Source of the DNA: a virus
Lineage: Duplodnaviria; Caudoviricetes
Length of the DNA: 64,000 nucleotides
Direction: 5' to 3' (one strand)
Virus record (IMG/VR): IMGVR_UViG_3300025390_000003
Location: 32,001-96,000 of that record
Part shown: piece by piece, positions 159 through 64,000 of the stretch
Position numbering within the stretch: the first letter of the stretch is position 1
How the letters are laid out: each line of letters starts with the position of its first letter
Notes under the pieces: generated by a model
Databases searched by the model: none
The model's input: only the letters and a program-made list of their open reading frames with translations
What the model was told of the DNA's origin: nothing
Translations under genes and position numbers: made by a program

Positions 159-827
159 ATGAGTAATTTAAATTTAACACAACAAATACAAGAAACTATG
201 TGTATTGGTGATTCATTACCAATATTAAACAACAATTTTACGAATTTAGATAACATAACATGCAATCTTAGTTCTATTTCATCTTCTATTATTACTAATA
301 TAACTGCATTAGGAAATCTCTTCTCGACTAATATATCAGGAATAACTAATCTATTGAACAATGCAGTAGTTGGAGTATCCGCAACAGGAATTACATCACT
401 ATCATCGACTATTAATATGTTTAGTAGAACTATGGTAAGTGTAAGAGGATCAACTCAATGTTATATGCCTAATGATGCATATCCTTTTGTGGGATATACT
501 GGAACCATAACACTACCAACAAATGTTCCAAATACTGCAAATTATATTATTTTACGAGCGAATATTTCCGACCAAAGTTATGTTGATCTATCACAAGTAA
601 ATAGTCACGATGCGCCAGCAGAATTCAAAATCAATGGATATACAATCCCTGTCACAAAAAATCCTATCTCAACACTTAATGGCGCATCGTATATAATGTT
701 ACCAAAACAAGCATTATACACTTGGAATTGGAGGTTTTTTTATACACAATCGATAACTACAGGATATTGCACACCAATGTCTTGCGTGAATACCCCATTT
801 AATGTAGAAATTATTGGATATTTTTAA
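159..827 (+). CDS. Putative tail fibre/appendage structural protein
   Basis: N-terminal CIGDSLxxLNNNFxNLD module shared with 19199..19633; S/T/N-rich; ends in IGYF. Confidence 0.5.
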   Translation: MSNLNLTQQIQETMCIGDSLPILNNNFTNLDNITCNLSSISSSIITNITALGNLFSTNISGITNLLNNAVVGVSATGITSLSSTINMFSRTMVSVRGSTQCYMPNDAYPFVGYTGTITLPTNVPNTANYIILRANISDQSYVDLSQVNSHDAPAEFKINGYTIPVTKNPISTLNGASYIMLPKQALYTWNWRFFYTQSITTGYCTPMSCVNTPFNVEIIGYF

Positions 828-1822: not shown

Positions 1823-2509
1823 ATGGATAAAGTTCGTTATTTAAATAAAGATATTAACGCAAACGAGCGTAATAATTTTAGTCTATGGTGGAAAGAACAA
1901 ATTGAACATTACGGAACCGAAACGAATTATTATACTAATGGATATACGTTAACTTCTCAAGATTTTATATACGGAGAAGACCCAACTGCGAAATTCTTAA
2001 GTGCTGGAAAGATTATAATGGTAACAAATATCACTAACGATTCAATTTTATTATCAAAATTTGGTGTTATGGCAGATTGTGATATGACTGCGGTAATACA
2101 TATATCAAGTTTTTATGAGAATTTTGGCCCAGGAACAGAACCAAAAGCAGGTGATTTAATTGAATTGTCTGAATATGGGGGATATGGAGATAGACCAAAT
2201 GGAAGGGGAGCACCCATATATGAAATCACAGAAAGAGATGATGAATATCTTCCAATGACTAATAGATTATTGGGACATTATGTTTTTTACATTAAATGTA
2301 AGAGATTCGAATACAGTTTCGAATCTGGTGTTCATGCAGAACCTCTTAATAATCAAGTTAACGATACTACTGCATTTGGTAGATTGTCGGGTGGTTCTAA
2401 TCCTGAAGAAATCACACCATCTCCAAATGCATCAAATGCTGATATCGAAGGTGCTAAATTATTCGACTACAATCAGAATACGTTATCTAGTCCATATGGG
2501 AACTATTAA
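1823..2509 (+). CDS. gp14: Neck protein, T4 gp14-like
   Basis: IYGEDPTAKF, SKFG and PKAGDLI motifs typical of gp14 homologs. Confidence 0.75.
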   Translation: MDKVRYLNKDINANERNNFSLWWKEQIEHYGTETNYYTNGYTLTSQDFIYGEDPTAKFLSAGKIIMVTNITNDSILLSKFGVMADCDMTAVIHISSFYENFGPGTEPKAGDLIELSEYGGYGDRPNGRGAPIYEITERDDEYLPMTNRLLGHYVFYIKCKRFEYSFESGVHAEPLNNQVNDTTAFGRLSGGSNPEEITPSPNASNADIEGAKLFDYNQNTLSSPYGNY

Positions 2510-5752: not shown

Positions 5753-8700
5753 TTAATGTAATATGTTATAAACTATCATTTCTCGTAAGCTGCATGTTGG
5801 TAAGTTTTCTATATATACTTCAACTAGAGTATTATCACCACTAACATTTTTTATAATAGTAGAGTATACATATTCTTTTGTATTGTAATTATAGCTAATA
5901 ACTGGCCTATCGATAATCGACTGTGTTCCTTGTAATCCTTCAAACTCTAACACATCAACAGGTAAAACTGGAAAAGTTTTTATAAGTTTATGAGTATTTA
6001 AATCAAGGCTATATAATTCAGGATGGAATATACCAGAACTTAACCAAGCAACACTTATTATTATTTTTTTCTCCTCTGGAAAAAACCAAGTTTCTCCTGT
6101 TTTTGCAACATCATATCCACTTAATGAACCTAACGACAATTCTCTATTAAGATTTAATTCTATTGGTAGTGCAAGAGATATAAAGTTCGATTTATTTGTA
6201 TTGCTACTAATTTCTCCAAGAGTATAATCATAATTTAGTTTCTCGAATATAACAACACCAGAGGTTTCAAACATTATAGTATCATAAAACACATCAACAT
6301 TTCTAAGTTTAGTTGATAATTCTGCATATAAATTAGAATTTGAGTATGATAAAAACACCGAAGATAAAGATTCCATTGCTGGTTTGACTATCTGATTATT
6401 CGCTCTCGTCCATAATTCACCAAAAACTTCCTTTCTATCAACAGGAGAAACATTTTTTATATTCTTATACAATCCATATTGATTTCCGAATATATCTGAA
6501 CACCAAACATCAAGTTGATTTCCAGATTTTTTAAGAACTTGTGACTCTTCCCATGCTGGAACATTAACCTGACCAGCAAAGTTTACTGGATGATTGTTAA
6601 TATCGACCCATTGGCTATCCTGTACGCCTCCCCAAGGGCTTTGTTTACTATTTGGGGTAATAAGTCCCACATTACTATTTTTATGGGTTTCTATGCTTGA
6701 TTGATAAGGGATGAACTTCTGATATTGTTTAGAAACAGTTTTTTTAATATCTCCTGCTGCTTGTCCTGTAATCACCAAATTTTTCATCCATGTATTATCA
6801 TCTTTGATTATTTTATATGGTGTTGGTTGATCTGTTTTAGACAATCCTCTACCACCAATTCTACGAGTAGCATCCTCTGTAATATTCGACAACTGAGATG
6901 ATGAAATATCATATACATAAGTATAATTTTTTCCTGTATACACTGAAGTCCCTAAATTGTTTGGAATGAAATATCCACCACTTTCATCTTCTGTATATAT
7001 ATCTTGTAAAGTTGGTAATATCGCAAGGGAAGGATAATTTCTATTAGTCAAATTTGCCCAAGGCTGTTGACTTACGATAGCAGAACTTAGCGAAAAATCA
7101 TTCTGTGTTAATACTTGTTGATATTCTCTATTTGCTGTTATATCCCATGTGAATGACCCTAAAGCATTATAATATACTCTAACAGGCTTATTGTCCACAA
7201 AGTTACTAAGAGTTATATCGCTCGGAACATTTAATGCACTTGAAGCATTAATTAGTGAAACGTTCGATATTGTAGCCAGATTTGATATACCTTCATCATT
7301 AATTAAAATTTTATTCCAACTTAATGAATTTACCAAAATTTTTAATGTTACTGGTTGATCCCAAGTAAAATCAATATCGTTGTTTTGATACTCGACATAC
7401 ACACCAGTATGGAAACTCATATCGGATATTATTGGTTGAGTAACGATATTATGAATATCAACAACTCTTGGTATTGTTCCCCAACTCTCTACTGTATTGT
7501 TACCAGTAACTATAGATTTATCAGTAAATCCTTTAACCCAAATAGGTCTTGCTCCTAAATACTTGCCATCATATTTATATGTATTATAGTTCCATCCGTA
7601 TAAATTAGTAGCCAATACAAATCCAGGTACTGGTGTATTATATGAAGTAAGAGACGTTGAATATGTTTGTGTTACTGTTGATGTTATTGCTGGAATTTGT
7701 GTGAATATATATGATCCTCCACCAACAAGACCAGCAATAAGAGTTACGTTATATGTGCCTGTGACCGTTGGAGAAAATGTTAATATTGTTGTATTATCTC
7801 CAGTTTTGTTATATGAGACACCACTTGGATCGATAAGTGTCCAATTTAAAGAAGATATCGCTGATAATGCCACTGTAGGATATTGTGCGTCATTTGCTTG
7901 CAGGGCAGATGCATTAACTACATCCACAACAGGATACGCAACATTCACCGTAGGTATAGGAAATTGATCCATCACTACTAAATCATAGGTAGACCATATA
8001 CTGTGTCCATTAAGATTTATGTTTGTATCGTTTGGTGCTAAACCAGACAATGTAAAATTCGAAGTTGGTGCCTTTTCGTATAATAAAACATCTCCAGCAT
8101 TCAACTGCATATTAGAAGGAACCTTTGCATTATACCAATTCCCATTAGCATCTTTCAATGCTTTTATCCACTTAGCAGAAGTTGTATTAAATGGATATCT
8201 AACTACATAATCAGGAAATGGAATATCGTCTAAATCTTGCAATTTAGCTGTTGTTCTATAATATACATAAGATTTTCCGGTTTCTAGTGTAAATGTTTTG
8301 TTGGAAACTATAGTATTTGTAGACACCCAACTACCATTACCCCAATTCGGAGTAATTTCATTAGTTTTGAACCAAGTGAATCCTATACTATTTTGGTAAT
8401 CGTTTCCATCCAAACCTTTCCAATTATTCAAATCAAATTCGTTTGGTGAAAATGTATCTTCAGCTATAAAATCACCAAAACCGCCGAAATCTGTATATAT
8501 ATTACCATTATGCCCAAATGGGGTAAATTGAACTTGTCTACACTTACACAATGTATGATCTTTAGCATTTAATGTTTTTAGATATGGACAATTATTTTCA
8601 TGTAATAAAGATTTAAATGCTGTATTTGCTGAAGTTGGCTCTCCTGTCCATGCAAATCTAGTAACTAATCCTGATGCGAAATTTGATGTGAATCCATTCT

Positions 8701-10438
8701 GTTTTATAGATGCGACCTTTCCGTTTTGTATATAATCTCCTGATAACCATGCTGCTTCTAATGCGTCAGAATATGAAGATTGATAATTAGGAACTTTGTA
8801 TATTACATCCGCAGAACTTAAACTGTCGGAAGCTGTCGCATAAGGAACATATATAGTAGATAGTAACATTGATGCACATATGTCAAATGTATTATTATCA
8901 GGATATGCGCTTACTGAACTTACATTAGTATTATTGACTGTAAGATAGGGCCAAGAAATGGTTGTGTTACTACCAGAAATAATAGACAATTCAGTTTTTG
9001 TCACTTTATACAACCAAGCTTCTTGAACTTCACCAGTATATGTTGATGCATCATATGTAACTGGTGTGTCCCACATTCGTATTTTATCAGAGAATTTATA
9101 ATCTACGTTTGGATACGCACCTGAATCTACCAATGTTGCATTATTGATAGCGACTAATTCTACTGCACTCAAGCTAAAATCACTATTCCAATATTCAGTT
9201 TCTACTCCCTTTCTATAAACAACATTTAAAAAATCATAACTAGGATCAGAACTTAATGAAGGTCCAGTCCAAGCCAGCCCATCGCCACTTAACCCATATC
9301 CAATAAACGGAAATCTAAAAATCGTCTTTTGGTTTCCGTTTAATAGTGCATGCATTTTTAAATTCTCATACACATCATAATCATTGAAGTTTAACCACGC
9401 ACCCTGAATTCCCCTGTTAGTTTCTACAAATATAGTATCAGAAGTGTCAATACTCGATCCAGCAACACCCAAAGTTTCGATATTAGCAGAACTCAATGCA
9501 CTAGATTTATATATTGGGAGGCTTGTCGCATTGGTTACATACGCGCCGTAAGGATAATAGAAAACATTCGTTCCATTTGCGATATCAACTGTATAAAAAT
9601 CCGAAGAAACATTAGTAACTAGATTATTAACATTAAATTTAGATTCTGCTAAATATTTACTAGAAAAATCTACTAAATTATCTGAAGATAGATTGAATGT
9701 TCCTGCTTCATATGCCCAATTTAATGATGATAATGACAACCCCTTCGATTTAAAATATGCATCAGTTGTAATATCTTGTGTATCAATATATGCAGATAAC
9801 GGAACATCCACACTTCTATCAAAATATTGGTGATCGTCATACACATCCTCAATTTCTACACTAATCGAATCTTTGATAGCACTCAAATCTGGTAATGTAT
9901 TCCACACATTTGCTGGAACTGTAATATACGAATTATCAATTTTGCTATAATTTGATAATATAATCTCTTTTAACTCTTGAACAATACCTCTTGGTGATCC
10001 TGCAATATTATATTTTAATTTTGTATTCTTTAAATTTTTACGTAAACGCAAATAATATAAAGCAATATTTTTAAGTTTTTTAGCAAAGAAAGGGATAGCA
10101 AGCAATAATTCCTTTTCATCATTTAAATTTACTTGATTATACCAATTTTGTTTTTCATCATCAGTAAGATATATTTGAAGTCCATTTAAAAGGTTTAAAT
10201 ATTTCAACCTAAGTTTCTCTAAAGATGTTGTGGTTTTATCGGGTTTTTTAGTATACCAAGATATTAAGTATTGATTATATTGTTGATATTCCTGATTTGG
10301 GATAATACTTTTGAACGAAGCATACCAATTTTTAAAAGACAATGGAGCATCTTGATCAAAATCAGTAGATATCAATCTTTCTGGATTTGCATATTTGTCT
10401 AATTGCGTTAAAGCTTGGTTTTGATTATTCGTTTGCAC
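5753..10438 (-). CDS. Very large baseplate/tail-associated structural protein
   Basis: 1561 aa, beta-rich S/T/N composition, downstream of gp25-gp6, TAAATA upstream. Confidence 0.7.
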   Translation of the reverse strand: MQTNNQNQALTQLDKYANPERLISTDFDQDAPLSFKNWYASFKSIIPNQEYQQYNQYLISWYTKKPDKTTTSLEKLRLKYLNLLNGLQIYLTDDEKQNWYNQVNLNDEKELLLAIPFFAKKLKNIALYYLRLRKNLKNTKLKYNIAGSPRGIVQELKEIILSNYSKIDNSYITVPANVWNTLPDLSAIKDSISVEIEDVYDDHQYFDRSVDVPLSAYIDTQDITTDAYFKSKGLSLSSLNWAYEAGTFNLSSDNLVDFSSKYLAESKFNVNNLVTNVSSDFYTVDIANGTNVFYYPYGAYVTNATSLPIYKSSALSSANIETLGVAGSSIDTSDTIFVETNRGIQGAWLNFNDYDVYENLKMHALLNGNQKTIFRFPFIGYGLSGDGLAWTGPSLSSDPSYDFLNVVYRKGVETEYWNSDFSLSAVELVAINNATLVDSGAYPNVDYKFSDKIRMWDTPVTYDASTYTGEVQEAWLYKVTKTELSIISGSNTTISWPYLTVNNTNVSSVSAYPDNNTFDICASMLLSTIYVPYATASDSLSSADVIYKVPNYQSSYSDALEAAWLSGDYIQNGKVASIKQNGFTSNFASGLVTRFAWTGEPTSANTAFKSLLHENNCPYLKTLNAKDHTLCKCRQVQFTPFGHNGNIYTDFGGFGDFIAEDTFSPNEFDLNNWKGLDGNDYQNSIGFTWFKTNEITPNWGNGSWVSTNTIVSNKTFTLETGKSYVYYRTTAKLQDLDDIPFPDYVVRYPFNTTSAKWIKALKDANGNWYNAKVPSNMQLNAGDVLLYEKAPTSNFTLSGLAPNDTNINLNGHSIWSTYDLVVMDQFPIPTVNVAYPVVDVVNASALQANDAQYPTVALSAISSLNWTLIDPSGVSYNKTGDNTTILTFSPTVTGTYNVTLIAGLVGGGSYIFTQIPAITSTVTQTYSTSLTSYNTPVPGFVLATNLYGWNYNTYKYDGKYLGARPIWVKGFTDKSIVTGNNTVESWGTIPRVVDIHNIVTQPIISDMSFHTGVYVEYQNNDIDFTWDQPVTLKILVNSLSWNKILINDEGISNLATISNVSLINASSALNVPSDITLSNFVDNKPVRVYYNALGSFTWDITANREYQQVLTQNDFSLSSAIVSQQPWANLTNRNYPSLAILPTLQDIYTEDESGGYFIPNNLGTSVYTGKNYTYVYDISSSQLSNITEDATRRIGGRGLSKTDQPTPYKIIKDDNTWMKNLVITGQAAGDIKKTVSKQYQKFIPYQSSIETHKNSNVGLITPNSKQSPWGGVQDSQWVDINNHPVNFAGQVNVPAWEESQVLKKSGNQLDVWCSDIFGNQYGLYKNIKNVSPVDRKEVFGELWTRANNQIVKPAMESLSSVFLSYSNSNLYAELSTKLRNVDVFYDTIMFETSGVVIFEKLNYDYTLGEISSNTNKSNFISLALPIELNLNRELSLGSLSGYDVAKTGETWFFPEEKKIIISVAWLSSGIFHPELYSLDLNTHKLIKTFPVLPVDVLEFEGLQGTQSIIDRPVISYNYNTKEYVYSTIIKNVSGDNTLVEVYIENLPTCSLREMIVYNILH

Positions 10439-10467
10439 AATATTTCAATTATTTAATGTAGAAAATC

Positions 10468-13400
10468 TTATTGAACATCTACCCATAGATTTTTTGTTAG
10501 TAAATAATTGAAAATCGTCTCAATTATGCCATTATCCGCATACCAATCAGCAGAAAGCGTTCGGTCTAATGTAGTATATGGACTATCCCAATCTATAATA
10601 TTATTCACATTTACACCACTAATTTGATTGCCCCATAATTTATATTTAGATATAGAAGCCAAATCTAACATATTTTGTATATCAGTAGGAAAATCTACAC
10701 CATACGTAAAATTACTTTGGTCTATTTCTGCTGCTAATGATTGTAATTGTGATATTTCGCAGGTATCAATATCCGAAACATTAGTGTTAAAATTCGCAAT
10801 CTTTTCATATAACATTTTTCCAATGTCCTCAAAAGTATTATCATTACTCGATCCCGCATCACCAACAACAGCAGGAAGAAATTCATCAAACATTTTAGTA
10901 TTATTATACAAAACTTCAGGAAACGCCAAAGATTTCATATATGCAGCAAGATCGAAACTTTCATTAACCTTTCGAATTTCGTAACTATTATTAAAATTAT
11001 TAATAGAGAACGGAACGGAAACGCCAGAAATATTTATAAACTCTGTTGAATCCGAAGCATATTTTTGATACCAAACATTACCAGTCCAATCGCCAGTAAC
11101 ACTTGCTGATTTTGCGTAATTCGAGGATAAAACATCAACTGTAGTATTATCATCAGAAAGATAATACAATATGTTTGGTGATCTTTTAGCATTAATGACC
11201 TTTAATCCTTGCACACCATCAAAAGAAGAATCAGCATTAAAAATATATGCATTATTTGTAATTGCATCGATTACCCAAACTCTATTATAAACATCAACAG
11301 CCAATCCACCAATTTCTTCATCTTCCATCCCATCAAAATCTGATTCGAACGCAGGAGTTATTATATTTCTAACATTATTACTATTATTAAAATATACTGG
11401 AGTTAAAGACCAAGTTTTAACGTTTCCGCTTAATCTATCAACATAACCAAAACTTCTAACACCAAAAGAGAACCAAGGATTATTGTCTCTATCTAATGCT
11501 ATATATACTGGTCTATTAATTCCTGATATTGAACTCATTAACACTCCATTGGTGCTATACTTTTCGATTAATCCTCCTGAAATGGTGGAATTAAAAGATT
11601 CTGTTACCCATATATCATTTTGTTTATCAACTACAATATTAGTAGGAACTGAATTTGATGATAAAGAAATGGTATGCATTATCAAACCCCCTGATGAATA
11701 TTTTACCATTGTGCTAGAATTAGGATTACTGTATGTAACCCAAACATCTCCATTCCTATCAGTTTCTACAACAGGAGGCTTCATTAAATAATCATCTTCA
11801 TATATCCCAATTTCACTAGGAGTAATTGAAAATAATAAATTTAGATTGTTGTCGAACTTCAAAACTGATAATGAATTGTATAAAGATACCCATATGTTAC
11901 GATCTTTGTCTAGACTAATATATGATGGAGTAGTTCCTGACACAGATGGAATATTATCATCAAACACACTAGATAAGTTTAACGTGCTCAATAATTCACC
12001 ATAACTAGAAAATTTATATATTGCATCTTGTTCTCCATCTACCGCAATTATATCAAAATTATATGGATCAATAGCCAATCCATAAATACCAGAAAATCCT
12101 GATATAGAATAATTAAACGTATTATTACTTGATAGAATAGGAACCGTAAATTTATCAACAGTTCCTTCTATTAACAACCCATTATCTCTATAATAATCAA
12201 CGACTGGACACGCACCCGATACTGGTTGTGGTGTGTATGCTATTTTACTAACACTTCCTATATCTGGAGTAGGAACAATTACAAAGAAATTCGGAGCTAA
12301 ATTTGTTGGATATGCAAAATTATATGTCCCTGCTGATACGTTATTAATAGTAGTAGAAACATAAATCGACACAGTATCAAAGGCACTAGAAGAATTAATA
12401 GTAGTAAATTTATATCCACTATTATTATTAAATCCATTTTCATCAGTAGTTGTGAAATATAATGGAGCATCTTCACAAGAAATTGGAATCATTCCTGTAG
12501 AGGTAGAAAGTGCAAAATATATAGAACTTAATTGTCCTATTGCATTTGTCTCAGGATATGTAAAAACGATATTGCTTTGTGATGCGGTTTCAATATCTCC
12601 ACCAAAATTATATTCTCTACCATAACTATGTAATGTTATCATGGTAGGAATTTTAACATCTGTCCAATTTCTACTATAAATTTCATCGATGTAATTTCCA
12701 GTGACTCGCATAAAGTTAGGAAAAGAAACTCCCACTTGCCACACAGTAACCGCTCTCGATACTTTACTATTCGCAAAACTATTATAATCGTATATATTAG
12801 AATCATTCGGATAACTAAATCCTGATGTTTGTAAAGTTGCGGATATTAGTAAAGGACAATCAACTGTAGGCTTTCCGCTTCCTATACTATCCACATAATA
12901 CACTGATGCTTCTGCTGACATACCAACAATAGTAGTTTTTCCATCAACAGTCAAATAAATCGGGGAACCGCTTAATTCCAAATTTTCTACCGTATTAAGT
13001 CCTAAATCGTCTGTAGTAAATCTCCAAGTCGGATTAATAAAATTCCACTTTGATGGTATTTGACTATATGGGATAGATTTTGAATCCGCCGCAAATAAAT
13101 TAACTACTAATGGTTTATCTACTTGAAATGTTTGTAGATATATTACAAATGGGGTGTCTGTAGGTTTACCTGCAAGTCCATAAGATTTAGGCAATTTAGA
13201 AAACGTAATAAAATCATCAACATACGACTTTGCTGTTAGTTCTATATTTTGAGTGCTGCTATTGTTAGAAGAATCAAATCCAGATAACGTCACATTATAT
13301 ACACCAGGGTAGTTGTATACGTGAGTAAAATCAATTTCGTTATAAACAAAATTTCCATCACCCATATCCCATATTCTTTTAACGACATCACTCGAAGAAG

Positions 13401-13473
13401 TATCTACAAACCTAAAATCCGTCGCATAGATAAATCCTACATTATCAGAAGAAAGTGTAAAATTTGCAATCAT
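10468..13473 (-). CDS. Baseplate-associated protein with PKD domain and NHL-like beta-propeller
   Basis: WDMGDG...HVYNYPGVYNVTL (PKD) and repeated D..G..WV blades; follows gp6. Confidence 0.75.
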   Translation of the reverse strand: MIANFTLSSDNVGFIYATDFRFVDTSSSDVVKRIWDMGDGNFVYNEIDFTHVYNYPGVYNVTLSGFDSSNNSSTQNIELTAKSYVDDFITFSKLPKSYGLAGKPTDTPFVIYLQTFQVDKPLVVNLFAADSKSIPYSQIPSKWNFINPTWRFTTDDLGLNTVENLELSGSPIYLTVDGKTTIVGMSAEASVYYVDSIGSGKPTVDCPLLISATLQTSGFSYPNDSNIYDYNSFANSKVSRAVTVWQVGVSFPNFMRVTGNYIDEIYSRNWTDVKIPTMITLHSYGREYNFGGDIETASQSNIVFTYPETNAIGQLSSIYFALSTSTGMIPISCEDAPLYFTTTDENGFNNNSGYKFTTINSSSAFDTVSIYVSTTINNVSAGTYNFAYPTNLAPNFFVIVPTPDIGSVSKIAYTPQPVSGACPVVDYYRDNGLLIEGTVDKFTVPILSSNNTFNYSISGFSGIYGLAIDPYNFDIIAVDGEQDAIYKFSSYGELLSTLNLSSVFDDNIPSVSGTTPSYISLDKDRNIWVSLYNSLSVLKFDNNLNLLFSITPSEIGIYEDDYLMKPPVVETDRNGDVWVTYSNPNSSTMVKYSSGGLIMHTISLSSNSVPTNIVVDKQNDIWVTESFNSTISGGLIEKYSTNGVLMSSISGINRPVYIALDRDNNPWFSFGVRSFGYVDRLSGNVKTWSLTPVYFNNSNNVRNIITPAFESDFDGMEDEEIGGLAVDVYNRVWVIDAITNNAYIFNADSSFDGVQGLKVINAKRSPNILYYLSDDNTTVDVLSSNYAKSASVTGDWTGNVWYQKYASDSTEFINISGVSVPFSINNFNNSYEIRKVNESFDLAAYMKSLAFPEVLYNNTKMFDEFLPAVVGDAGSSNDNTFEDIGKMLYEKIANFNTNVSDIDTCEISQLQSLAAEIDQSNFTYGVDFPTDIQNMLDLASISKYKLWGNQISGVNVNNIIDWDSPYTTLDRTLSADWYADNGIIETIFNYLLTKNLWVDVQ

Positions 13474-13475
13474 AA

Positions 13476-15305
13476 TTAATAACCTAAAAATCCTTTATTG
13501 GTTTGTGTTGGTTGTATAACGATTTTATTTGCCAGATTATTATAATCAAATAGATATGGATATTCAAACAACCTAAACTGCATATTATTTGAAGTTTGTG
13601 TTAAATCTATTGTAGAATAATCAGGGTTCCATACAAACAAAGACAAACCTTGGAATAATACATCACTATCCACTCTTCCAGTATAGAAAGTATGCACACC
13701 ATCTATTTCTAATATTTTTTGTGTTATGATTTTTATATCCAATGTCTGTCCAAGTGTAATACTAGTTCTATCAAAATAATCTTTAAACACCCCAACTACA
13801 TCATTAACTATTGCAACATTATCTCTATTAGAATTTGGAGACTTACTAATATATAATCTACTAACACTTTCATCCGTCACTACAAAAGGATCGCCAATAT
13901 TGTATATACCAATTGCAACCGCTTTATACACTGGATCAGCATAAGCAATTTCCGCAGACATACATTTAGATGGTTGTATTGATGTGCTTATTAACTCTTT
14001 CTGTGCTGGTAATAAGTAAGATAAAGTTATATTATCCGTAGTTTTTGGCACCACAAATAAATATACATTATTAAAATTGCAAGCATCCGAAAATTGAATC
14101 TGATTAAATAATGCTCTACTAGACATTGTAGGATCGGTTAATCCCAAATCATAAAAATATTGTAAATATTCTGTAGTATATACCCAATTATTAACCACGA
14201 CAACATCTGAAATCAAATTCGCAAAATTTGTTTTTATAAACTTTGTATAATCCGCTTCATTTATTAGTCTATACTGACTTCTAAAAATTGCTGGAGCATT
14301 TTCTCTTATTTCATCCGCAGTTTCTACATCTTGTATAGGAGTTGATGCAGTATAGTTTGTAATTTTAACATTTGATAGATCATTATTTGATATACTATTC
14401 AAATAACTATTATTCAAAACATCCGAAAGAATTTGTGTGAACTGTGCGGTATTAAAAATTTGTGGCGAGGCATTTTTTAACGCTTGCTGACCAATAACTC
14501 CAGTGGTTCCATCACTTTTTAAATAATACAAAGCAACTACATCCCCTTCTTGCAGTTTTCTACCATTAATATCATTACCGAAAACTATTTCATATTGTTT
14601 ATTACCATTCAAACGGATTTCATATTTTTCCGCATTGCTACTTTCTAGATATAAATTAATAGTTTTTGTATATTGCACCCATGTTCCTGTAGTATATGGC
14701 TTGACATACACATCAACATTAAAATGATCAATATTAGTTCCAATTGGTGGAGATAATAACACAAGTTCATTACCTTCTCCTGTTGCGGTATATATTGGAT
14801 ATTCTTGGTATGATCCCTGAAACAACAAAGTTTGATTACTTAAATCGTCTAGTCCTTCAGTTACACCTGATAATGTCTTCACAAATGTAGCTTCAGTATT
14901 AAACGAAAATTTTACATTATTAACACTAACATACGAATATCTTGGTATCGTGTATATTCCTGCATTTAACTTCCCGACAGTAGCAGAGAAAGATAATGTA
15001 GATGTTTGATATCCTATTGGATTATAGTCTAACAATTTTACAATTCTATTTATATTCTCATAAAGTTGTGCTTCTGTAAACATAGATTCAGAAGCAGTTC
15101 TATTTAGATAATAAATTAATGTATTGAAAGAATATGCAACAATATCTATTATAGATGCTAAATTACTACCAATATAGTTTTGGTCTGTAAATACTTGTTT
15201 ACTATTAAGTCTATCGATAATCAATTGTCGTAATGAAGTGGCATCAAAAGCGGCATATCCACCTTTTGGTATATCGAAATTATTAAAATTGTTTATTGTT
15301 GACAT
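13476..15305 (-). CDS. gp6: Baseplate wedge subunit gp6-like
   Basis: FTDQNYIGSNL..IIDIVAY, YEIVFGND..G and ETADEIRENAP..FRSQYRL motifs. Confidence 0.9.
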   Translation of the reverse strand: MSTINNFNNFDIPKGGYAAFDATSLRQLIIDRLNSKQVFTDQNYIGSNLASIIDIVAYSFNTLIYYLNRTASESMFTEAQLYENINRIVKLLDYNPIGYQTSTLSFSATVGKLNAGIYTIPRYSYVSVNNVKFSFNTEATFVKTLSGVTEGLDDLSNQTLLFQGSYQEYPIYTATGEGNELVLLSPPIGTNIDHFNVDVYVKPYTTGTWVQYTKTINLYLESSNAEKYEIRLNGNKQYEIVFGNDINGRKLQEGDVVALYYLKSDGTTGVIGQQALKNASPQIFNTAQFTQILSDVLNNSYLNSISNNDLSNVKITNYTASTPIQDVETADEIRENAPAIFRSQYRLINEADYTKFIKTNFANLISDVVVVNNWVYTTEYLQYFYDLGLTDPTMSSRALFNQIQFSDACNFNNVYLFVVPKTTDNITLSYLLPAQKELISTSIQPSKCMSAEIAYADPVYKAVAIGIYNIGDPFVVTDESVSRLYISKSPNSNRDNVAIVNDVVGVFKDYFDRTSITLGQTLDIKIITQKILEIDGVHTFYTGRVDSDVLFQGLSLFVWNPDYSTIDLTQTSNNMQFRLFEYPYLFDYNNLANKIVIQPTQTNKGFLGY

Positions 15306-19198: not shown

Positions 19199-19633
19199 TT
19201 AATAACCTAAAACAAACCAACTTATACCACCCGCAGAAAATGGGTCTACATTAGCATTCTGTATTTGTATCGACAGATTTGTTTGTGTGGCATTAGTAAT
19301 TATTTGAACCCAAGTATCATCAGCATTACCAACATTACCAACACCAGGAGAACTCTTTATCCACGTTGCTTGTTGATGAATACAAGCATTAGGAAAAACA
19401 ACGGGAAACGAAACTGTTACAACATTTTGACTATTATATATTAATGGTGTTTCACCCCACTGCATTATCAATCCACTACCAAATGTTTGATACCCAACAG
19501 AAGAAAGTGACGCACTACCACTCAATTGATGTATGAGATTGTCGAAATTGTTAGCATTAAAATTTATAGAAGACAACGAAGTTCCTATGCATTCCGTTGG
19601 CTGAATTGTAACTGTTCCGTAATAATTGCTCAT
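19199..19633 (-). CDS. Small tail fibre-like protein
   Basis: GYQTFGSGLIMQWG...VSFPVVFPNAC...WFVLGY is a common tail-fibre C-terminal domain. Confidence 0.7.
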   Translation of the reverse strand: MSNYYGTVTIQPTECIGTSLSSINFNANNFDNLIHQLSGSASLSSVGYQTFGSGLIMQWGETPLIYNSQNVVTVSFPVVFPNACIHQQATWIKSSPGVGNVGNADDTWVQIITNATQTNLSIQIQNANVDPFSAGGISWFVLGY

Positions 19634-24806: not shown

Positions 24807-24810
24807 AATA

Positions 24811-27105: not shown

Positions 27106-27186
27106 AATAAATAGGTATTACTATTATTTATTATGGATTTAATGAAATATAACAAAATTAGAACATTCTTAATAAATATTAAAAAT

Positions 27187-27609: not shown

Positions 27610-27611
27610 AC

Positions 27612-27648
27612 GAACAATGCCAATAATATTTGATTATTGGCATTGTTC
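27612..27648. terminator. Hairpin terminator between convergent genes
   Basis: gaacaatgccaataat / attattggcattgttc perfect 16-bp inverted repeat. Confidence 0.8.
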
Positions 27649-27654
27649 AAATTT

Positions 27655-28110: not shown

Positions 28111-28113
28111 ATT
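28068..28113. repeat. 18-bp tandem repeat, about 2.5 copies
   Basis: (tgtcatattatttgttgt) repeated. Confidence 0.9.
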
Positions 28114-28192
28114 TTAATATTTATAATTTCTATATTTTCTGGAATTTGTTTCATATGTTTGTATTTTATCATATTTCCATAGTTTGTCAACT

Positions 28193-29047: not shown

Positions 29048-29073
29048 AATTATTATATTTAATAGCCATATTG

Positions 29074-30015: not shown

Positions 30016-30021
30016 TTACTA

Positions 30022-30831: not shown

Positions 30832-30863
30832 AATAATATAACTACTTATTATGGAATTTTAAA

Positions 30864-33642: not shown

Positions 33643-35760
33643 TTACCCAACCAATTCTTGGAAGTTTTGGCTGGTTCTAGTAGCCACGAAATTTATTAGG
33701 ATAAATTCTGCTGCCCTAACTGGCTTTAAATATATATCCACATGCAATTCATTTGCATCGATAGAATCCGGGGTGTTGTTCCTAGAGTCGCAAACCACCA
33801 AATAATCGTATACCCCTTGAGTGTTCTTTGCGTTTTCAAATATTGGTGTTAATGCATTTACAACTCTGGTTCTAGTGAAATCTGTGTTTGGTTCAAACAC
33901 AAAGTATTTCATTATATCCTGTGTGGATTTTTCAAGAGATAGGAACAATCTACGAACATTTACACGATCAAAAGCGGATGGTTTCTTTTGAAGGGTTTTT
34001 TGTCCGTATACCACATATCCATCATTAGGGAAGAACACCACTGGATTAATAGAAATAGTATATAAGAAATCTCTTTGTTTCTGGTTAGGATTGAAAGCGA
34101 TATCTGTAATACCTTTAACTATTCCTCTAGTAAGACCAGCAGGAGCAATCCAAGGGTATGTTGCTTTATCAGAATTTGCGTATATATTAGCAGCAAATCC
34201 AGAGAAAGGACACCAGAATTGTTTATCAGAATTTGCATCATACACTTTAACCCAATTTCCGTAGGTAGCAGCATAATTACTATTCGTTCCACCAAATAAG
34301 GTTTTCAATGGAGTATAAACATTTTGAGAAAAGGTATTTCCAGGAATTGAAACTATCTTTGTATCACTACCATTAATAAAGATTTGGCGTAATGGATCAA
34401 CAATAATCATACAATCCTTTCTGGTTTCGCTAGTGAAAGCATCATATAATCCATAAACTGAAGACCAAGATTGATAACATGGTGCGAAAGCAGAAGATAA
34501 TTGAGTGATGTCAACATACACAGAATCATCATATATTCCACTTACTGCATTTGCTGCTATTGTAGTAAGACCCGCATCAACAACGATATCTAATGGATAA
34601 ATTTCAGGATTATCCACTAAAGAAAGAGCGCGATCAACTTTACTAGCAACATTTCCAATATCGTTATAGTTTACATTAGAAACTACTGGAGTATAAACAC
34701 CTTCTGCAAACAATGCTTTAGCGGAACCATCAACACTAACAGAGGATAATGGATTGTTTGTGCTTAAGCTTGTCCAAGAAGTGTGTTTAGATATTGCAGG
34801 ATTCACAAGCAATGTCAAATTTGAAGAACTATTATTAACAATATCCGACAAGTAGAAAGAGCGAGGAATACCACCTTGGGATGTTGATGTTTTCTTATTC
34901 GCATCCAAAGAACCGATACGACTTTCAACTAATGATATTGACAACATTTGTGGATCATATATGGATTGACGAACTTTAAATAAATTCAAAATCAAACTGT
35001 CTTGATAATATGAATCACCGAAATCGAATAATGGAGTAGTTTCAATTATTTCAGATACAGAATTGTTACTTCCTCCGATATTAGAACCAGAAAGATTAAA
35101 CGCCAACTTAGATGTTGGTAATGTATACCAATTTGTTAATGTATCGCCAGTATTCACTAAACTATACATACTAGTCACAGCAGTAAATGAAGTATCAGGT
35201 CCTAAGTCTGTATTATCTTTCAGAGAAATGTAATATCCCTCGAAAATATCGTTAATCGTTGTTTGGCTATCGTTGATTATGATAATACCCGCGTTTGCAT
35301 TAACAGTATCCCATGATGCTGCTGTTGTTGAGCTTGAAATGCTACTCCATGCAAAATTATTCTGTGCTAATTGATTATATTCAGCATTGCTTAAAGTATA
35401 TTGAGATGGGTTTCCTATTGTAAATCCCCCTGTTGAAGATGCGACAGGATAGAATAATGCACTATAGCTATCAGAAAATCCTAATCCAGCAGCGGAACCA
35501 TAGGGTAAACGTGTGGTTAATAAATTTCCTGCGGATTGCACGACTTGTTTTGCAGATTGATAAAAATATCTTTCTGCTGCATTTGTAGGAAGACCGAAAA
35601 TCTGTTCAAATTCCGAAATAGTGGAAATAGAAACAACTTCGTCCGTAGGTCCTTGGGAAGCAAACCCCATAACATATACATTAGTTCCTACCACTGTTTG
35701 AGTAGTATCGGATAAGTCAATTTCTGTGATTTGAACACCTGGTGAATTAATAGTTCTCAT
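33643..35760 (-). CDS. gp18: Contractile tail sheath protein
   Basis: SPGVQITEIDLS, PWIAPAGLTRG, SAFDRVNVRRLF, FVFEPN, KPVRAAEFI. Confidence 0.97.
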   Translation of the reverse strand: MRTINSPGVQITEIDLSDTTQTVVGTNVYVMGFASQGPTDEVVSISTISEFEQIFGLPTNAAERYFYQSAKQVVQSAGNLLTTRLPYGSAAGLGFSDSYSALFYPVASSTGGFTIGNPSQYTLSNAEYNQLAQNNFAWSSISSSTTAASWDTVNANAGIIIINDSQTTINDIFEGYYISLKDNTDLGPDTSFTAVTSMYSLVNTGDTLTNWYTLPTSKLAFNLSGSNIGGSNNSVSEIIETTPLFDFGDSYYQDSLILNLFKVRQSIYDPQMLSISLVESRIGSLDANKKTSTSQGGIPRSFYLSDIVNNSSSNLTLLVNPAISKHTSWTSLSTNNPLSSVSVDGSAKALFAEGVYTPVVSNVNYNDIGNVASKVDRALSLVDNPEIYPLDIVVDAGLTTIAANAVSGIYDDSVYVDITQLSSAFAPCYQSWSSVYGLYDAFTSETRKDCMIIVDPLRQIFINGSDTKIVSIPGNTFSQNVYTPLKTLFGGTNSNYAATYGNWVKVYDANSDKQFWCPFSGFAANIYANSDKATYPWIAPAGLTRGIVKGITDIAFNPNQKQRDFLYTISINPVVFFPNDGYVVYGQKTLQKKPSAFDRVNVRRLFLSLEKSTQDIMKYFVFEPNTDFTRTRVVNALTPIFENAKNTQGVYDYLVVCDSRNNTPDSIDANELHVDIYLKPVRAAEFILINFVATRTSQNFQELVG

Positions 35761-58107: not shown

Positions 58108-58797
58108 TTAATAATATGTTATCCAATTGTTTGATTGTTTGATTATTTCTAACGGCAAAATATCTTTAATACCATGCACTGAAAATACTTCATTAGTTTT
58201 CAATCTCTCTCGAAGTTCTGGATGATGCTCTGGTCTAATTGGATCATGACTATATCCATGTAAAGTAGATATATTTATATTTTCATACTCGCAAGTTGCA
58301 GCAATCCATCTATCGAGAAATCCCAATTCTGTTGGTGTGTATTTACTATCCGACAATTTTATCCACGTATCTTGTGTGGCTATCCAAGGAGAATGCCCAA
58401 AAAATGATGCATTAAACCTACTTTCATCATTTTTCCAAATTTCTCCCATATACATAGTTCCATCTAATATTTCTATATTAGTATTGGGGGTTAATAAGAT
58501 TGTATCATATTCTATCAACACATTTATTCCAGAAAGTTTAGCAAGGGTATCTACAGAAAATTTCGTCCGTTTTATACAATCATCACCGTAAAGCTGAGAA
58601 ACCCCACATGCGTATTCGGTATATTTTGGTAGATTTGGTGTTTCCATATTTTGTATGAATTCTATACCATTTACTGGATCATCCTCTGGACAAATCATAT
58701 AAATATTATCAGTAAAAAATATCCAATTATAATAATGTCTGATTATAACATCTCTCACCTTTCCATGTGCCATTACTACAATATTATCAAATTTCAT
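58108..58797 (-). CDS. Putative glycosyltransferase-like protein
   Basis: LIEYD (DxD-like), ELGFLDRW and VHGIK; last gene of the glycan cassette. Confidence 0.45.
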   Translation of the reverse strand: MKFDNIVVMAHGKVRDVIIRHYYNWIFFTDNIYMICPEDDPVNGIEFIQNMETPNLPKYTEYACGVSQLYGDDCIKRTKFSVDTLAKLSGINVLIEYDTILLTPNTNIEILDGTMYMGEIWKNDESRFNASFFGHSPWIATQDTWIKLSDSKYTPTELGFLDRWIAATCEYENINISTLHGYSHDPIRPEHHPELRERLKTNEVFSVHGIKDILPLEIIKQSNNWITYY

Positions 58798-58806
58798 ATT
58801 TATTAT

Positions 58807-59490
58807 TTAATCTGACATATCTACCGAATCCACTGTAATGTTATCATCTTTCACGTATAACCTATCATGAATAAACCAAGGTGTTTCTCCACCATATATC
58901 CATTTGTTCATACCATATCTAATTGCGATAACAGACATTGCCGTTTGGTCGTGTCTATGCCCCTTTACTCTTGTGTCTTTTGATGCCAATAACATATTGT
59001 TATTATGAGGACCAGGAAAGGTAATCCCATCATTTGCCAATTGCATCATATCTCCAAAAAAATCATATATCACTTTATAATTAAAATTCAATCCGAAATT
59101 AGTCCCTTGCATACACGGCATAGTAAAAGATTCTTCTCGTGTGATGTTAAGTGTTTTTAATGCTTTATCATGACAATAACTACCCAAATCATGATTATAC
59201 AGAAAGAAATACCCATCGGTGTTTATACGATTAAACGCATCATCAAGATTTTTTTTTATTATTACGCTGCTATCCAACCATAATATTCTTTTATATCCAT
59301 TTTCTAATGCATCTCGTATACAATAATATTTAAACGCAAATGGAGATTCTTGATGTGTTGGACATCCTTTAGGGTATTCATTAAATCCTAAAAATGGGAC
59401 ACCCAAAGCTTCGCATTGTAATCTAAGTCGATCTACTCCCTTAATAAAGTTATATCCAACACCAAAACTTACAACACAAGATTCGTTCAT
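58807..59490 (-). CDS. Putative GT-A glycosyltransferase
   Basis: FAFKYY, RILWLDSS, HRHDQTAMS; ATGA overlap with the upstream gene. Confidence 0.65.
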   Translation of the reverse strand: MNESCVVSFGVGYNFIKGVDRLRLQCEALGVPFLGFNEYPKGCPTHQESPFAFKYYCIRDALENGYKRILWLDSSVIIKKNLDDAFNRINTDGYFFLYNHDLGSYCHDKALKTLNITREESFTMPCMQGTNFGLNFNYKVIYDFFGDMMQLANDGITFPGPHNNNMLLASKDTRVKGHRHDQTAMSVIAIRYGMNKWIYGGETPWFIHDRLYVKDDNITVDSVDMSD

Positions 59491-60167
59491 AAAACAATCC
59501 AATTTTTTTTAGAAATATTATATAAAAAATTATCATTATATAATCTCGCGTATTTATGATAGTATAATTTTTTACTTTTTACTTCTATTGACTCTATTAT
59601 ATGTTTAAAACTAGAATCTATAACGTGTATTTCCGTCGCATTTTCAATGATCTTTAAATAATCAAATATATTATTTGTAAATCTAATATCAGGAGTAACC
59701 ACTTGAACATTTTGTGGTATATGGGTTTTATCTATATTAAAATTTCTTTGTGTATCTTCGTGTATAAAAATGTAATCCCCCTTTATTTCAAATTTGTCAT
59801 ATAATTCTTGTTCTCTTTTATTATCGCGCAATATATAAAAATCGCTCCATCGTTTATCAAAGTCCAATCCAACACTATGATAAAAAAATTTATCATAATT
59901 TTGAATACAATCTAGATATTGATGTCCTATAACGAGATGGGTTTCTTGTGGAACGTTTTTCAGTATGTTCTGTGCGTCTTTATCATCAGCTTTTACTATC
60001 GATAAATTATGTATATCCCTAAACATAAATCCCACACTTTCTACATTATGTGGTTTACAAAAAAGGTTTACTTTTTCTACCCTTTTACAAATATTTCTAA
60101 TTAATCCATTACATATAATGTGATCCCCTAATCCCAAATGCTGATATACATAAAGTTCTTTATTCAT
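59487..60167 (-). CDS. Putative GT-B glycosyltransferase-like protein
   Basis: HLGLGDHIICNG, IFIHED, IENATEIHVIDSSF. Confidence 0.55.
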   Translation of the reverse strand: MNKELYVYQHLGLGDHIICNGLIRNICKRVEKVNLFCKPHNVESVGFMFRDIHNLSIVKADDKDAQNILKNVPQETHLVIGHQYLDCIQNYDKFFYHSVGLDFDKRWSDFYILRDNKREQELYDKFEIKGDYIFIHEDTQRNFNIDKTHIPQNVQVVTPDIRFTNNIFDYLKIIENATEIHVIDSSFKHIIESIEVKSKKLYYHKYARLYNDNFLYNISKKNWIVL

Positions 60168-60171
60168 ATTA

Positions 60172-60789
60172 CTAACGTAAAAATATATCTGAGTAATTAT
60201 ACACCCTCTCTACTGAGTTTCTCGTGAATATATAGTGCCAAGTATATTCAAATATTCTACTAGTAGTAAAATTATCTAGATGAGTTTCTATTAAAAAATC
60301 CACCAAACTTTGATAAAATTCTATTGGATATTGTAATATTAAGCCTTTATCTACTACAAATTGCGCACATGAATAATAAGAAAAAATTGAAGGAAACGTA
60401 AGATATTTTTCAAACAGTCTCCAATTATCTTTGAGAAATGCTATATATATTTCACGATTCGCATTCATACTAATCTCTTTTTGATAAAAATCACGTTTAT
60501 TTACCGAAAAAAATAAATCCGCATTCCAATTCACTTTTAATATAATATCATCCATATTAAAGTCTTGATGATACGACATCCTATGATCATGTGAAAATAA
60601 AGTCTTATCTGGAAGATTATTATAATTATCTATGATATATCGCAAATAACAAAGAGATTCTTGTCCCTTGTTTGGTTCTATGAAATTATAATTTTTATTG
60701 GTTTTAGAATATATAAATTTTTTAATATTTATGTTATCCACCCAACCAATATCGTGATCATAATGAGCGACTAATATTGCAGTATCCAT
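60172..60789 (-). CDS. DUF3431-like putative glycosyltransferase
   Basis: VAHY...W, PNKGQE...YLRYIIDNY..LPD...F.HDH, CAQFVV, FEYTWHYIF. Confidence 0.7.
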   Translation of the reverse strand: MDTAILVAHYDHDIGWVDNINIKKFIYSKTNKNYNFIEPNKGQESLCYLRYIIDNYNNLPDKTLFSHDHRMSYHQDFNMDDIILKVNWNADLFFSVNKRDFYQKEISMNANREIYIAFLKDNWRLFEKYLTFPSIFSYYSCAQFVVDKGLILQYPIEFYQSLVDFLIETHLDNFTTSRIFEYTWHYIFTRNSVERVYNYSDIFLR

Positions 60790-60793
60790 TATA

Positions 60794-61402
60794 TTAATTA
60801 ATCTTTTCGTATACTAAATACCCATTTCTTTCATTTAAATTGTCATCTATAATCCTATAAATCAATGGATGGTTTAATACCTCTTCTCTTATTTTTCTAC
60901 ACTTCAATTCTTTCGTATCATCTAAAGCGCAATACCGACTCCTATCTTTTAATAAATTCCATTCCATATATGTAGAAAACTCTCCACCATCTAGAACCAA
61001 AAAATCTATTTTATCATGGACTTTATAATAAACATTAGGCAAATCTTTCATCCAATTATAATCCTGTTGCAACCAACTTTTTTGGTCTGAAGATAAAATA
61101 GAAACATCAAACCAACTGCTTAACAGAGATTCATCCACCAATTTTCCGAAAATAATATCAAAATTTGAATTTAAATTTTGTTTATTATTCTTGGTAGCCA
61201 AGATAAACATTTCAGGATTACATTCAAACGAACGAAAATTATAAACAACTTTATCTTTTAATCCTTCTAATATACATCTGGTAGTCCCCATACCATTCCA
61301 AGTTCCAACTTCTAATATATTATTTACATCAGAGATATTTGCAATATCTCTGATATGTTTACCTAAATTGGTAGTTTCAAAATTTATTTGTCCGTATTCC
61401 AT
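60794..61402 (-). CDS. Class I SAM-dependent methyltransferase
   Basis: ILEVGTWNGMGT, IDFLVLDGG, ALDDT. Confidence 0.75.
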   Translation of the reverse strand: MEYGQINFETTNLGKHIRDIANISDVNNILEVGTWNGMGTTRCILEGLKDKVVYNFRSFECNPEMFILATKNNKQNLNSNFDIIFGKLVDESLLSSWFDVSILSSDQKSWLQQDYNWMKDLPNVYYKVHDKIDFLVLDGGEFSTYMEWNLLKDRSRYCALDDTKELKCRKIREEVLNHPLIYRIIDDNLNERNGYLVYEKIN

Positions 61403-61436
61403 ATTTTAATTTTATTTATATACATTAAAAATAAAA

Positions 61437-62192
61437 TCAACATCGTATAATTTTATATACATCATCTTCCATTATCAAATCTATCATGTTTTTATTTTCT
61501 AAACTATTCCACCCCGTTTTTGGTAATGCGTTTATGATTGTTTCCGCATCAGATAAAAACCCCGCCCAAAAACTAAATGTTCCTTGGCTTAATATGAGTT
61601 TTTTATGGTGAGATAAAAAATCCAACGTTTTTTTGGAATTCATGGTTATTACATTACATTTATAATTATCGGTTAATATTTTTATATATTCGTGATTAGG
61701 AGAATCAGTAGTGATATTGATAATATCATAATCCTTTATCGCATCTATAGCTTCAATATAGTAGGATATTGGAAGTAAATGTTGTCTACTATTATAATCC
61801 ATCAAATCCCCCAATCTAATATGCATCCCTATATCATTATCATTAACAATATATGGAGTTATATTACACCATTTTTTTATGTTACTTTTATATGGTATGT
61901 AATATTCTTTTTTTTGAAAATAATGATCCAATACAATACGTCTTGGTGTATTATCATTAATAATATCACACAAATTAAAGTTACAATTATCTAAATATTG
62001 AATCGGAGTATTATAACATTGTAATGATTTATTACAATAATCTAAATGAAATTCATCTAACAAAGTATGTTCATTTAAGTTTCTTAACTGAAACCCTAAA
62101 CTTTGTGATATTATTTTACCCAAAAATAATGTAAACATTTGATTACCTAACCTACCTATAGGATTAATTTTATTGTATATATCCACACTCAT
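61437..62192 (-). CDS. GT11-family alpha-1,2-fucosyltransferase-like protein
   Basis: GRLGNQMF, YFQ, MHIRLGD, SQGTFSFWAG. Confidence 0.85.
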   Translation of the reverse strand: MSVDIYNKINPIGRLGNQMFTLFLGKIISQSLGFQLRNLNEHTLLDEFHLDYCNKSLQCYNTPIQYLDNCNFNLCDIINDNTPRRIVLDHYFQKKEYYIPYKSNIKKWCNITPYIVNDNDIGMHIRLGDLMDYNSRQHLLPISYYIEAIDAIKDYDIINITTDSPNHEYIKILTDNYKCNVITMNSKKTLDFLSHHKKLILSQGTFSFWAGFLSDAETIINALPKTGWNSLENKNMIDLIMEDDVYKIIRC

Positions 62193-63016: not shown

Positions 63017-63018
63017 AT

Positions 63019-63936: not shown

Positions 63937-64000
63937 CTTTAAATCCAGTCAATCTCCTTCTTTGATATGTTTCATAATCTATTTTTTCTAACTTATTATT

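Follow-up and report, generated by a model that had tools for sequence, protein, structure and literature searches.

The window analysed here is a stretch of 64,000 nucleotides comprising bases 32001–96000 of a single 128,251-bp metagenomic viral contig (IMG/VR record IMGVR_UViG_3300025390_000003; 31% G+C). The tail sheath it encodes is ~31% identical to the sheaths of T4-like cyanophages, the closest cultured relatives, and its gp6-like baseplate subunit is 22–26% identical to cultured T4-like counterparts, identities that mark the source phage as an uncultured, distantly T4-like myovirus. The subject of the analysis is a tripeptide, Leu-Ser followed by Ser, Ala or Gly (LS[SAG]), that recurs in outward-facing proteins of the virion, including two large baseplate-associated proteins of 1561 and 1001 amino acids (aa) encoded after the gp6-like gene, and an island of glycosyltransferase (GT) open reading frames (ORFs) that begins near the end of the window and continues beyond it (Table 1).

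Table 1. Features of the window that bear on the LS[SAG] motif, in window coordinates
Feature	Position	Strand	Remarks
222-aa fibre-like protein	159..827	+	N-terminal anchor in common with the 144-aa fibre
228-aa T4 neck-protein-like ORF	1823..2509	+	Pfam T4_neck-protein
1561-aa baseplate-distal protein	5753..10438	-	second gene after gp6; 16 LS[SAG]
1001-aa baseplate protein	10468..13473	-	directly after gp6; 10 LS[SAG]
gp6-like inner baseplate wedge subunit	13476..15305	-	PHROG_219, E 4e-36
144-aa fibre with gp53-like C-terminal tip	19199..19633	-	Pfam Gp53-like_C, E 1e-13
Tail sheath	33643..35760	-	Pfam Phage_sheath_1 + Phage_sheath_1C, residues 493-694
12-ORF GT island, window part	58108..64000	-	between gp46 and gp47; runs on to ~window coordinate 66866
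Conserved 283-aa GT-A (A4-family)	65317-66168 (window-equivalent)		just past the window end; adjoins gp47

The 1561-aa protein matches no Pfam or PHROG family, and homologues of it are encoded downstream of gp6 in many relatives; 10 of its 16 LS[SAG] sites fall between residues 185 and 565. The 1001-aa protein is made up of a PKD domain (Pfam), beta domains, an NHL-type beta-propeller (approximately residues 460–820) and a conserved helical C-terminal domain. The gp6-like subunit served as anchor and internal control and is not enriched in the motif (1 observed, 0.8 expected). Smaller carriers include the 144-aa fibre (3 observed, 0.25 expected), in which all sites lie within the N-terminal 45 residues, the 228-aa neck-protein-like ORF (3 observed, 0.2 expected) and the 222-aa fibre-like ORF (2 observed, 0.4 expected), of which the ~40 N-terminal residues are similar by BLAST to those of other small fibre ORFs, including the 144-aa fibre. 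The three sites of the sheath (residues 223, 338 and 421; 1.4 expected, an excess that is not significant by itself) all precede the residues matched by the Pfam sheath domains. LS[SAG] is missing altogether from the major capsid protein and from the tube-like 192-aa ORF.

In the 1561-aa and 1001-aa proteins only 2.7 and 1.7 copies, respectively, are expected from the composition of the protein, and for each of them the observed count was reached in 0 of 20,000 composition-preserving shuffles. Taken together, ten outer proteins (baseplate periphery, fibres, collar and neck) hold 60 LS[SAG] against 10.9 expected, and shuffles confined to blocks of 10, 20 or 40 residues yielded 12–14 copies in the same proteins (maximum, 28). 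The core virion proteins (portal, major capsid, gp6, gp25, sheath, tube and tape-measure-like) have 8 copies where 6.3 are expected. Genome-wide, 77 LS[SAG] fall in the virion arm, where 22 are expected, and 20 fall outside it, where 21 are expected; among tripeptides with meaningful counts the three most over-represented in the virion arm are LSA, LSS and LSG. An earlier note on this DNA had arrived by eye at 16 copies in the 1561-aa protein, 10 in the 1001-aa protein, 3 in the 144-aa fibre, 3 in the sheath and 2 in the ORF at 159..827, with none in the 1520-aa polymerase, the 860-aa NrdJ or gp46; all of these counts proved exact, the three zeros among them. Its suggestion that the bias would have to outlast a correction for composition was likewise borne out, with the excess persisting through global and local shuffles and limited to outward-facing virion proteins.

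The copies are dispersed rather than tandem, as the note had also held: Tandem Repeats Finder reported no repeat and self-BLAST no internal repeat. The coefficient of variation (CV) of the gaps between sites is 0.99 for the 1561-aa protein and 0.39 for the 1001-aa protein, whose sites are spaced more regularly than random placement would give. Leu in the motif is encoded by four codons and Ser by both TCN and AGY, in the proportions usual for the genome, and the signal therefore lies at the level of protein, not of DNA or mRNA.

The clade was sampled through 74 metagenomic relatives in IMG/VR, and the figures on motif specificity come from a non-redundant clade set of 87 proteins encoded downstream of gp6 (75.5 thousand residues), which contains 526 LS[SAG] against 126 expected (z ~35). 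At position 1, L is enriched 4.2-fold, V 2.1-fold and I 2.5-fold, the value for I being inflated by ISG runs; the ISG, VSS and VSA variants that the note had counted towards the pattern are present, but contribute at only ~2-fold. At position 2, S is enriched 4.2-fold versus 1.4-fold for T, with Asn and Asp at ~1-fold, and at position 3 the order is A (5.6-fold), G (4.3-fold), S (3.4-fold) and T (1.5-fold), the remaining residues being at ~1-fold or less. The reversed tripeptide, [SAG]SL, occurs at 0.97-fold. Preferences in the flanks are weak (≤2-fold): hydrophobic residues are favoured at −2, +3 and +5, and Pro or a small residue at −1, while position +3 almost never holds Pro or Lys. Four known sequons, namely D[ST][AILVMT] of the Bacteroidota, N-X-S/T, the PglB sequon D/E-X-N-X-S/T and the glycosaminoglycan (GAG) attachment motif SGxG, are not enriched, occurring at 0.4–1.65-fold in the outer proteins of this phage and at 0.66–0.94-fold in the clade set. 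The pattern is thus a short, ordered and Ser-specific motif, over-represented ~4–6-fold in outer proteins.

Across the relatives, proteins encoded downstream of gp6 contain 693 LS[SAG] against 161 expected, and the gp6 proteins 38 against 55.5 expected. The excess is present in every larger ingroup record looked at (G001–G004, the complete 209-kb genome G006 and the distant G005, whose gp6 is 33% identical), and in each case only a few large proteins of the tail, baseplate, fibres and neck account for it; the G006 homologue of the 228-aa neck-protein-like ORF, for instance, has 4 copies (0.3 expected). Cultured T4-like phages served as outgroups. The pooled outer proteins of P-SSM2, Cr30 and pf16 contain 28 LS[SAG] (20 expected), and the 5195-aa gp7 of P-SSM2 contains 8 (6.8 expected). 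Since the outer proteins of the outgroups are near expectation, the bias is specific to this clade, and these controls rule out a generic trait of T4-like or beta-rich tail proteins. Among the control proteins only gp212 of pf16 (L106; 15715–17286), encoded after the gp6-like gene, is in excess, with 5 LS[SAG] where 0.6 are expected. Some outer homologues of the relatives (L001–L074) have low-complexity runs (TPTPT, SGYSGY and ISGISG) that dominate the pooled raw ranking of tripeptides.

Other phages have over-represented tripeptides of their own in their outer proteins, [SA]NT in Cr30 and YPR in P-SSM2. In Cr30 (L076, NC_025422; locus 24096–33264), [SA]NT is dispersed over gp249, gp250, gp251 and gp253, with 35 copies against ~5.5 expected (~6-fold); there are none in gp5 or the tail protein OZ74_gp240, and gp6 has 2 (0.7 expected). 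Either lineage-specific sequons or lineage-specific structural idioms would, on this pattern, be common on phage tails.

The enriched families of the genome have no BLAST relation to one another apart from the ~40-residue N-terminal anchor of the small fibres, and a common ancestry of the 1001-aa and 1561-aa families was rejected at an HHalign probability of 1.8%. At least six families without a mutual BLAST or HHalign relation are all enriched 4–6-fold in LS[SAG], and non-homologous or divergent segments in three of the relatives' loci (L054, L015 and L055) bring many copies of their own. Within families, 25–38% of sites are retained as LS[SAG] at 30–40% identity and 12–18% below 30% identity, where alignment error may contribute, and copies per protein are steady at 8–9 and ~14 while retention drops. 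In the 1561-aa family the motif Ser is retained above the average Ser (0.47 versus 0.26 at 30–40% identity). Columns in which the motif is in the majority hold Ser at 76–80% and Thr at 9–14%, with S, G and A interchanging freely at position 3, and many sites of the 1561-aa family fall within family-wide conserved blocks (GYGLSGE, ECAWLSG and VPLSAY). On the best reading, LS[SAG] is a motif centred on serine that selection has preserved in those tail, baseplate, fibre and neck proteins of the clade that face outwards.

The AlphaFold2 model of the 1001-aa protein has a predicted local distance difference test (pLDDT) score of 69, and its propeller matches NHL, Pizza and virginiamycin B lyase propellers, both with Foldseek and in a profile search of Protein Data Bank (PDB) sequences. 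Three to five LS[SAG] sites occupy equivalent positions on the NHL blades, a partial exception to the absence of repeats and, as modelled, a structural contribution to the motif. The motif Leu is at the C-terminus of a strand in 4 of 9 cases, compared to 24% of all Leu, a comparison of secondary structure that does not discriminate. The model of a fragment of the 1561-aa protein (residues 160–1000) has a pLDDT of 62, falling below 50 in the site-dense part (185–423), and a fold search with it returned no clear PDB match.

Above the Pfam threshold, the GT island contains two GT2 genes, one GT11 and a DUF3431, with an RXYLT1_C-like match below the cut-off; the DUF3431, the GT11 and the weak RXYLT1_C match are inside the window and both GT2 genes lie beyond its end. 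The note had put the number of glycan enzymes at about nine, which is confirmed in part: among the 12 ORFs, Pfam supports these four assignments and the sub-threshold one. The gp46–gp47 interval holds 5 ORFs in G001 (GT2, GT11, GT10 and GT7C), 4 in G004 and 11 in G002 (including a GT10 with FucT_N, an FkbM methyltransferase, a GT1, a HAD-nucleotidyltransferase fusion, a GDP-mannose-dehydratase-like gene, an RXYLT1-like gene, a GT-D and a DUF6492), the GT1 and GT-D-like matches in relatives being below the Pfam cut-off. Island size is therefore hypervariable (4–12 genes), while the motif is constant. In another sublineage (L112–L116), gp47 directly abuts gp46 with no island between them, and in its complete genome, G006, a GT cluster with homologues of three island genes is found 17 kb away. 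Here (L119–L129) gp47 abuts gp46 at ~118018–122404 and the cluster is at 138–144 kb instead; the gp46 of this genome has a ~1.5-kb insert, possibly an intein or endonuclease.

The sole gene common to G000, G001, G002, G004 and G006 is the 283-aa GT-A, 32–41% identical between genomes. Motif and GT cluster are both present in all five of these assessable ingroup genomes, and the conserved GT-A is absent from all three outgroups (P-SSM2, Cr30 and pf16). Nearly all of its ESM Atlas relatives are viral, and members at ~30% identity occur in 567 mycobacteriophage records (~29%, tblastn) and in some coliphages of the HK97-like kind. When PDB sequences were searched with a profile built from the GT-A alignment, the hits were confined to generic N-terminal GT-A matches, the best being GalT1 (5HEA). 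No ORF was recognised as a homologue of GT41, of a GT9-like heptosyltransferase or of an oligosaccharyltransferase.

Genes that would point to DNA as the glycosylated substrate were also sought. No hydroxymethylpyrimidine synthesis genes, no C5-methyltransferase (PF00145) and no Tet/JBP gene (PF12851, a search for which the control was likewise empty in every genome) were found in the 128-kb record, which is ~61% complete by CheckV. The sole trace of the thymidylate-synthase family is a 65-aa C-terminal remnant (54293–54490, minus strand) beside an IS200/IS605 element. Remnant and element together span 54293–56211 of the window, with TnpA at 54542–54967 (minus strand) and TnpB/OrfB at 54952–56211 (plus strand), and the insertion appears, from this arrangement, to have destroyed or displaced a thymidylate-synthase-family gene. 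In the distant relative G005 (L108/L109, 68176–69744), thymidylate synthase is a single 534-aa open frame with a ~235-aa insert between profile positions 104 and 104 that looks like an intein.

Elsewhere in the window, a 764-aa protein (24811–27105, minus strand), probably tape-measure-like, has an identical 89-residue stretch starting at residues 378 and 460, which indicates, at the sequence level, a tandem duplication of an 82-aa unit. A 706-aa homing-endonuclease-like ORF is encoded at 31433–33553 (minus strand; PHROG_3339, E 6e-116), and two paralogues of it are located beside the capsid gene (genome positions 10489–13709).

The best single explanation of the motif, with a probability of about 0.38, is phage-encoded, sequon-directed O-glycosylation. 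LS[SAG] would be the recognition site (sequon) of a cytoplasmic serine-modifying enzyme, with O-glycosylation of the motif Ser as the best candidate modification. The conserved, virus-restricted 283-aa GT-A would start the glycan by attaching a sugar, which the transferases encoded around it, variable from genome to genome, would lengthen. These neighbouring genes comprise GT11 and GT10 fucosyltransferase-like, GT2, RXYLT1-like and methyltransferase genes and, in relatives, genes for GDP-sugar synthesis. The parts of the virion that contact the host would thereby acquire a glycan coat particular to the lineage. Of such a phage-encoded coat, already proposed in the earlier note, the motif stands as real, restricted to outer proteins, clade-wide and accompanied by a GT cluster, while any modification of the Ser, its glycan nature and the identity of the reading enzyme are inferred. 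A fuller version, in which the whole clade has its own sequon read by the conserved GT-A and the hypervariable accessory transferases diversify the glycan between strains, is put forward tentatively and tends towards the doubtful.

Several observations weigh against sequon-directed glycosylation. Sites private to one sequence occur at about the chance number (47 versus 33.7 and 35 versus 35.6 expected), and the excess is thus made of long-lived conserved sites rather than of rapid gain; a glycan-shield-like rapid turnover of sites was dropped on these grounds, and long-lived conserved sites would also be predicted by a structural role. Several sites occupy equivalent NHL-blade positions or the paralogous fibre anchor, the placement of the motif Ser in coil in the 1001-aa model (7 of 9, compared to 70% of all Ser; DSSP strings) is not discriminating, and the motif is no scarcer than expected in non-virion proteins. 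The island sits among early, recombination and DNA-metabolism genes (gp46, gp47 and gp55), in a neighbourhood that on the T4 map also includes alpha-gt. Against Che8 gp108, gp109 and gp110, the conserved GT-A gave BLASTP E-values of at least 0.038 over a fragment of the DxD region only. Two phages with a ~30%-identical GT, the mycobacteriophage Velveteen (6 LS[SAG] versus 4.3 expected) and ECP1 (at expectation), have no excess of the motif, and the Cr30 genome offers only a sub-threshold GT2-like ORF beside its [SA]NT excess. A relative that keeps the outer proteins without a GT cassette was not found, the seeming case, G006, carrying its cluster elsewhere. The co-occurrence of motif and cassette, which the note had suggested checking in related phages, held in each assessable genome, but, read phylogenetically, the pairing of motif and GT-A is a single contrast.

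It is quite possible that the motif is instead an unmodified structural idiom, a strand end or bulge in which the Leu is buried, the hydroxyl of the Ser acts as a cap and the third, small residue permits tight packing, and which was fixed in the beta-rich domain families of the clade's outer tail proteins and then inherited. An excess composed of sites common within subclades, with private sites at chance, would follow directly, as would the location of sites in conserved blocks of the 1561-aa family and at equivalent blade positions, the regular spacing in the 1001-aa protein, the alternation of hydrophobic residues at −2, 0, +3 and +5, the scarcity of Pro at +3 and the existence of separate outer-protein tripeptides in Cr30 and P-SSM2. 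Such an idiom is harder to reconcile with the appearance of an identical ordered tripeptide, at 4–6-fold, in at least six unrelated families and in non-homologous replacement segments, or with the analogous beta-rich proteins of P-SSM2 (gp7 in particular), Cr30 and pf16 being at expectation. The presumably exposed Ser position is also stricter than the hydrophobic position, with little tolerance of Thr and none of Asn or Asp above ~1-fold, and the free exchange of Gly, Ala and Ser within a column speaks against a Gly-specific backbone turn. That some other trans-acting reader is responsible (phosphorylation, acylation, a flagellin-type host cytoplasmic GT or the binding of a tail-assembly chaperone), with the island directed at DNA or host glycans, is unlikely. 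The setting of the island among early and recombination genes would suit this explanation, as would the hypervariable content of the island beside a constant motif, the occurrence of distant GT homologues without a motif excess (Velveteen and ECP1) and the precedent of phage GT clusters that hypermodify DNA with diverse glycans (bioRxiv 10.1101/2023.12.21.572611); the island may also remodel host surface glycans. Set against it are the failure to find hydroxymethylpyrimidine, Tet/JBP or C5-methyltransferase genes in the incomplete record, the lack of a kinase, acyltransferase or other candidate reader among ~60 window and island ORFs scanned, and the retention of one GT-A in all assessable genomes, even where the cluster has moved. 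Chance, a Ser/Leu-rich composition artefact or a DNA-level signal has a negligible probability. The outer proteins are rich in Ser, Thr, Asn and Gly, some excess is expected among 8000 tripeptides, and the non-virion set itself reaches a z of ~5.8; nevertheless, no shuffle, global or local, attains the counts seen, the reverse motif is at expectation, three related tripeptides rank 1 to 3, the excess replicates in the 87 non-redundant relatives and the codons vary, and these explanations were excluded on the strength of the shuffles, the reverse motif and the codon variety.

Neither an LS[AGS]-type sequon nor a glycosylated T4-like virion turned up in a search of the literature, and to our knowledge phage virion glycosylation is known only from a few mycobacteriophages. 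If sequon-directed glycosylation is correct, it would extend phage virion glycosylation to another class of substrate, with a definable sequon and a separate set of enzymes; a tripeptide acceptor on receptor-binding hardware would be new, and glycan sites would become predictable from sequence alone. It would also explain the presence of hypervariable GT islands beside conserved core genes and would have consequences for host range, for how well virions withstand proteases and defence systems, for non-specific adsorption and for how antigenic therapeutic phages are. Should it extend, possibly, to the [SA]NT of Cr30, sequon-directed glycan coats on phage tails would be widespread and unrecognised, and the [SA]NT sites of Cr30, a cultured phage, make the idea of a tripeptide tag testable by mass spectrometry. 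If the motif is purely structural, it is a reminder that a tripeptide bias peculiar to one lineage's tail proteins can be mistaken for a sequon.

The closest phage precedent is the O-glycosylation of virion proteins by phage GTs in the mycobacteriophages Che8, Corndog and Myrna (Freeman et al. 2023, as relayed in PMC11256854, PMC12363180 and PMC12619734). There the glycans are carried by the C-terminal ends of the capsid and tail-tube subunits, and no linear sequon is reported in these accounts (PMC11256854, PMC12363180 and PMC12619734). Both cases feature phage-encoded soluble GTs, virion proteins as the proposed substrate and a cytoplasmic modification prior to assembly, and the conserved GT-A matches a GT, other than Che8 gp108–110, in the 567 mycobacteriophage records. 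They differ in that the candidate LS[AGS] sites are dispersed over baseplate, fibre and neck proteins with none on the major capsid protein, and in that the GT-A has no significant similarity to Che8 gp108–110. Phage DNA glycosylation, by the T4 alpha- and beta-glucosyltransferases or by methyltransferase/5mYOX-dependent clusters (bioRxiv 10.1101/2023.12.21.572611), is alike in having a multi-GT cluster among DNA-metabolism genes, in a T4-like genome, and in the repurposing by phages of lipopolysaccharide-like GT families. It is unlike the present case in that no hydroxymethylated-base gene or route of 5-methylcytosine oxidation was detected here, and it would leave the protein motif unexplained.

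Further from phages, the comparison extends to eukaryotic viruses and to bacteria. Chloroviruses and giant viruses glycosylate their own capsid or fibril proteins at non-canonical sites, through N-linked or unknown linkages. They resemble the present clade in encoding eukaryote-like GTs (fucosyltransferases, exostosin/RXYLT1-like enzymes and methyltransferases) and in having a lineage-specific acceptor motif, but their hosts are eukaryotic, whereas the candidate acceptor here is a Ser hydroxyl in a tailed phage. Sequon-directed glycosylation in bacteria includes the cytoplasmic NGT/HMW1C enzymes, which act at N-X-S/T, and the O-glycosylation of Bacteroidota at D-[ST]-[AILVMT], and the autotransporter heptosyltransferases Aah and TibC act on Ser in beta-helix repeats. 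As in these systems, the candidate sequon spans three consecutive residues that include the acceptor, be it a hydroxyl or an amide, and is enriched in surface proteins; unlike in them, the candidate enzyme is a small, virus-restricted GT-A, and the bacterial motifs themselves are at or below expectation in the present proteins. The nearest mechanistic analogy is to Aah and TibC, which act in the cytoplasm on beta-rich, adhesin-like proteins.

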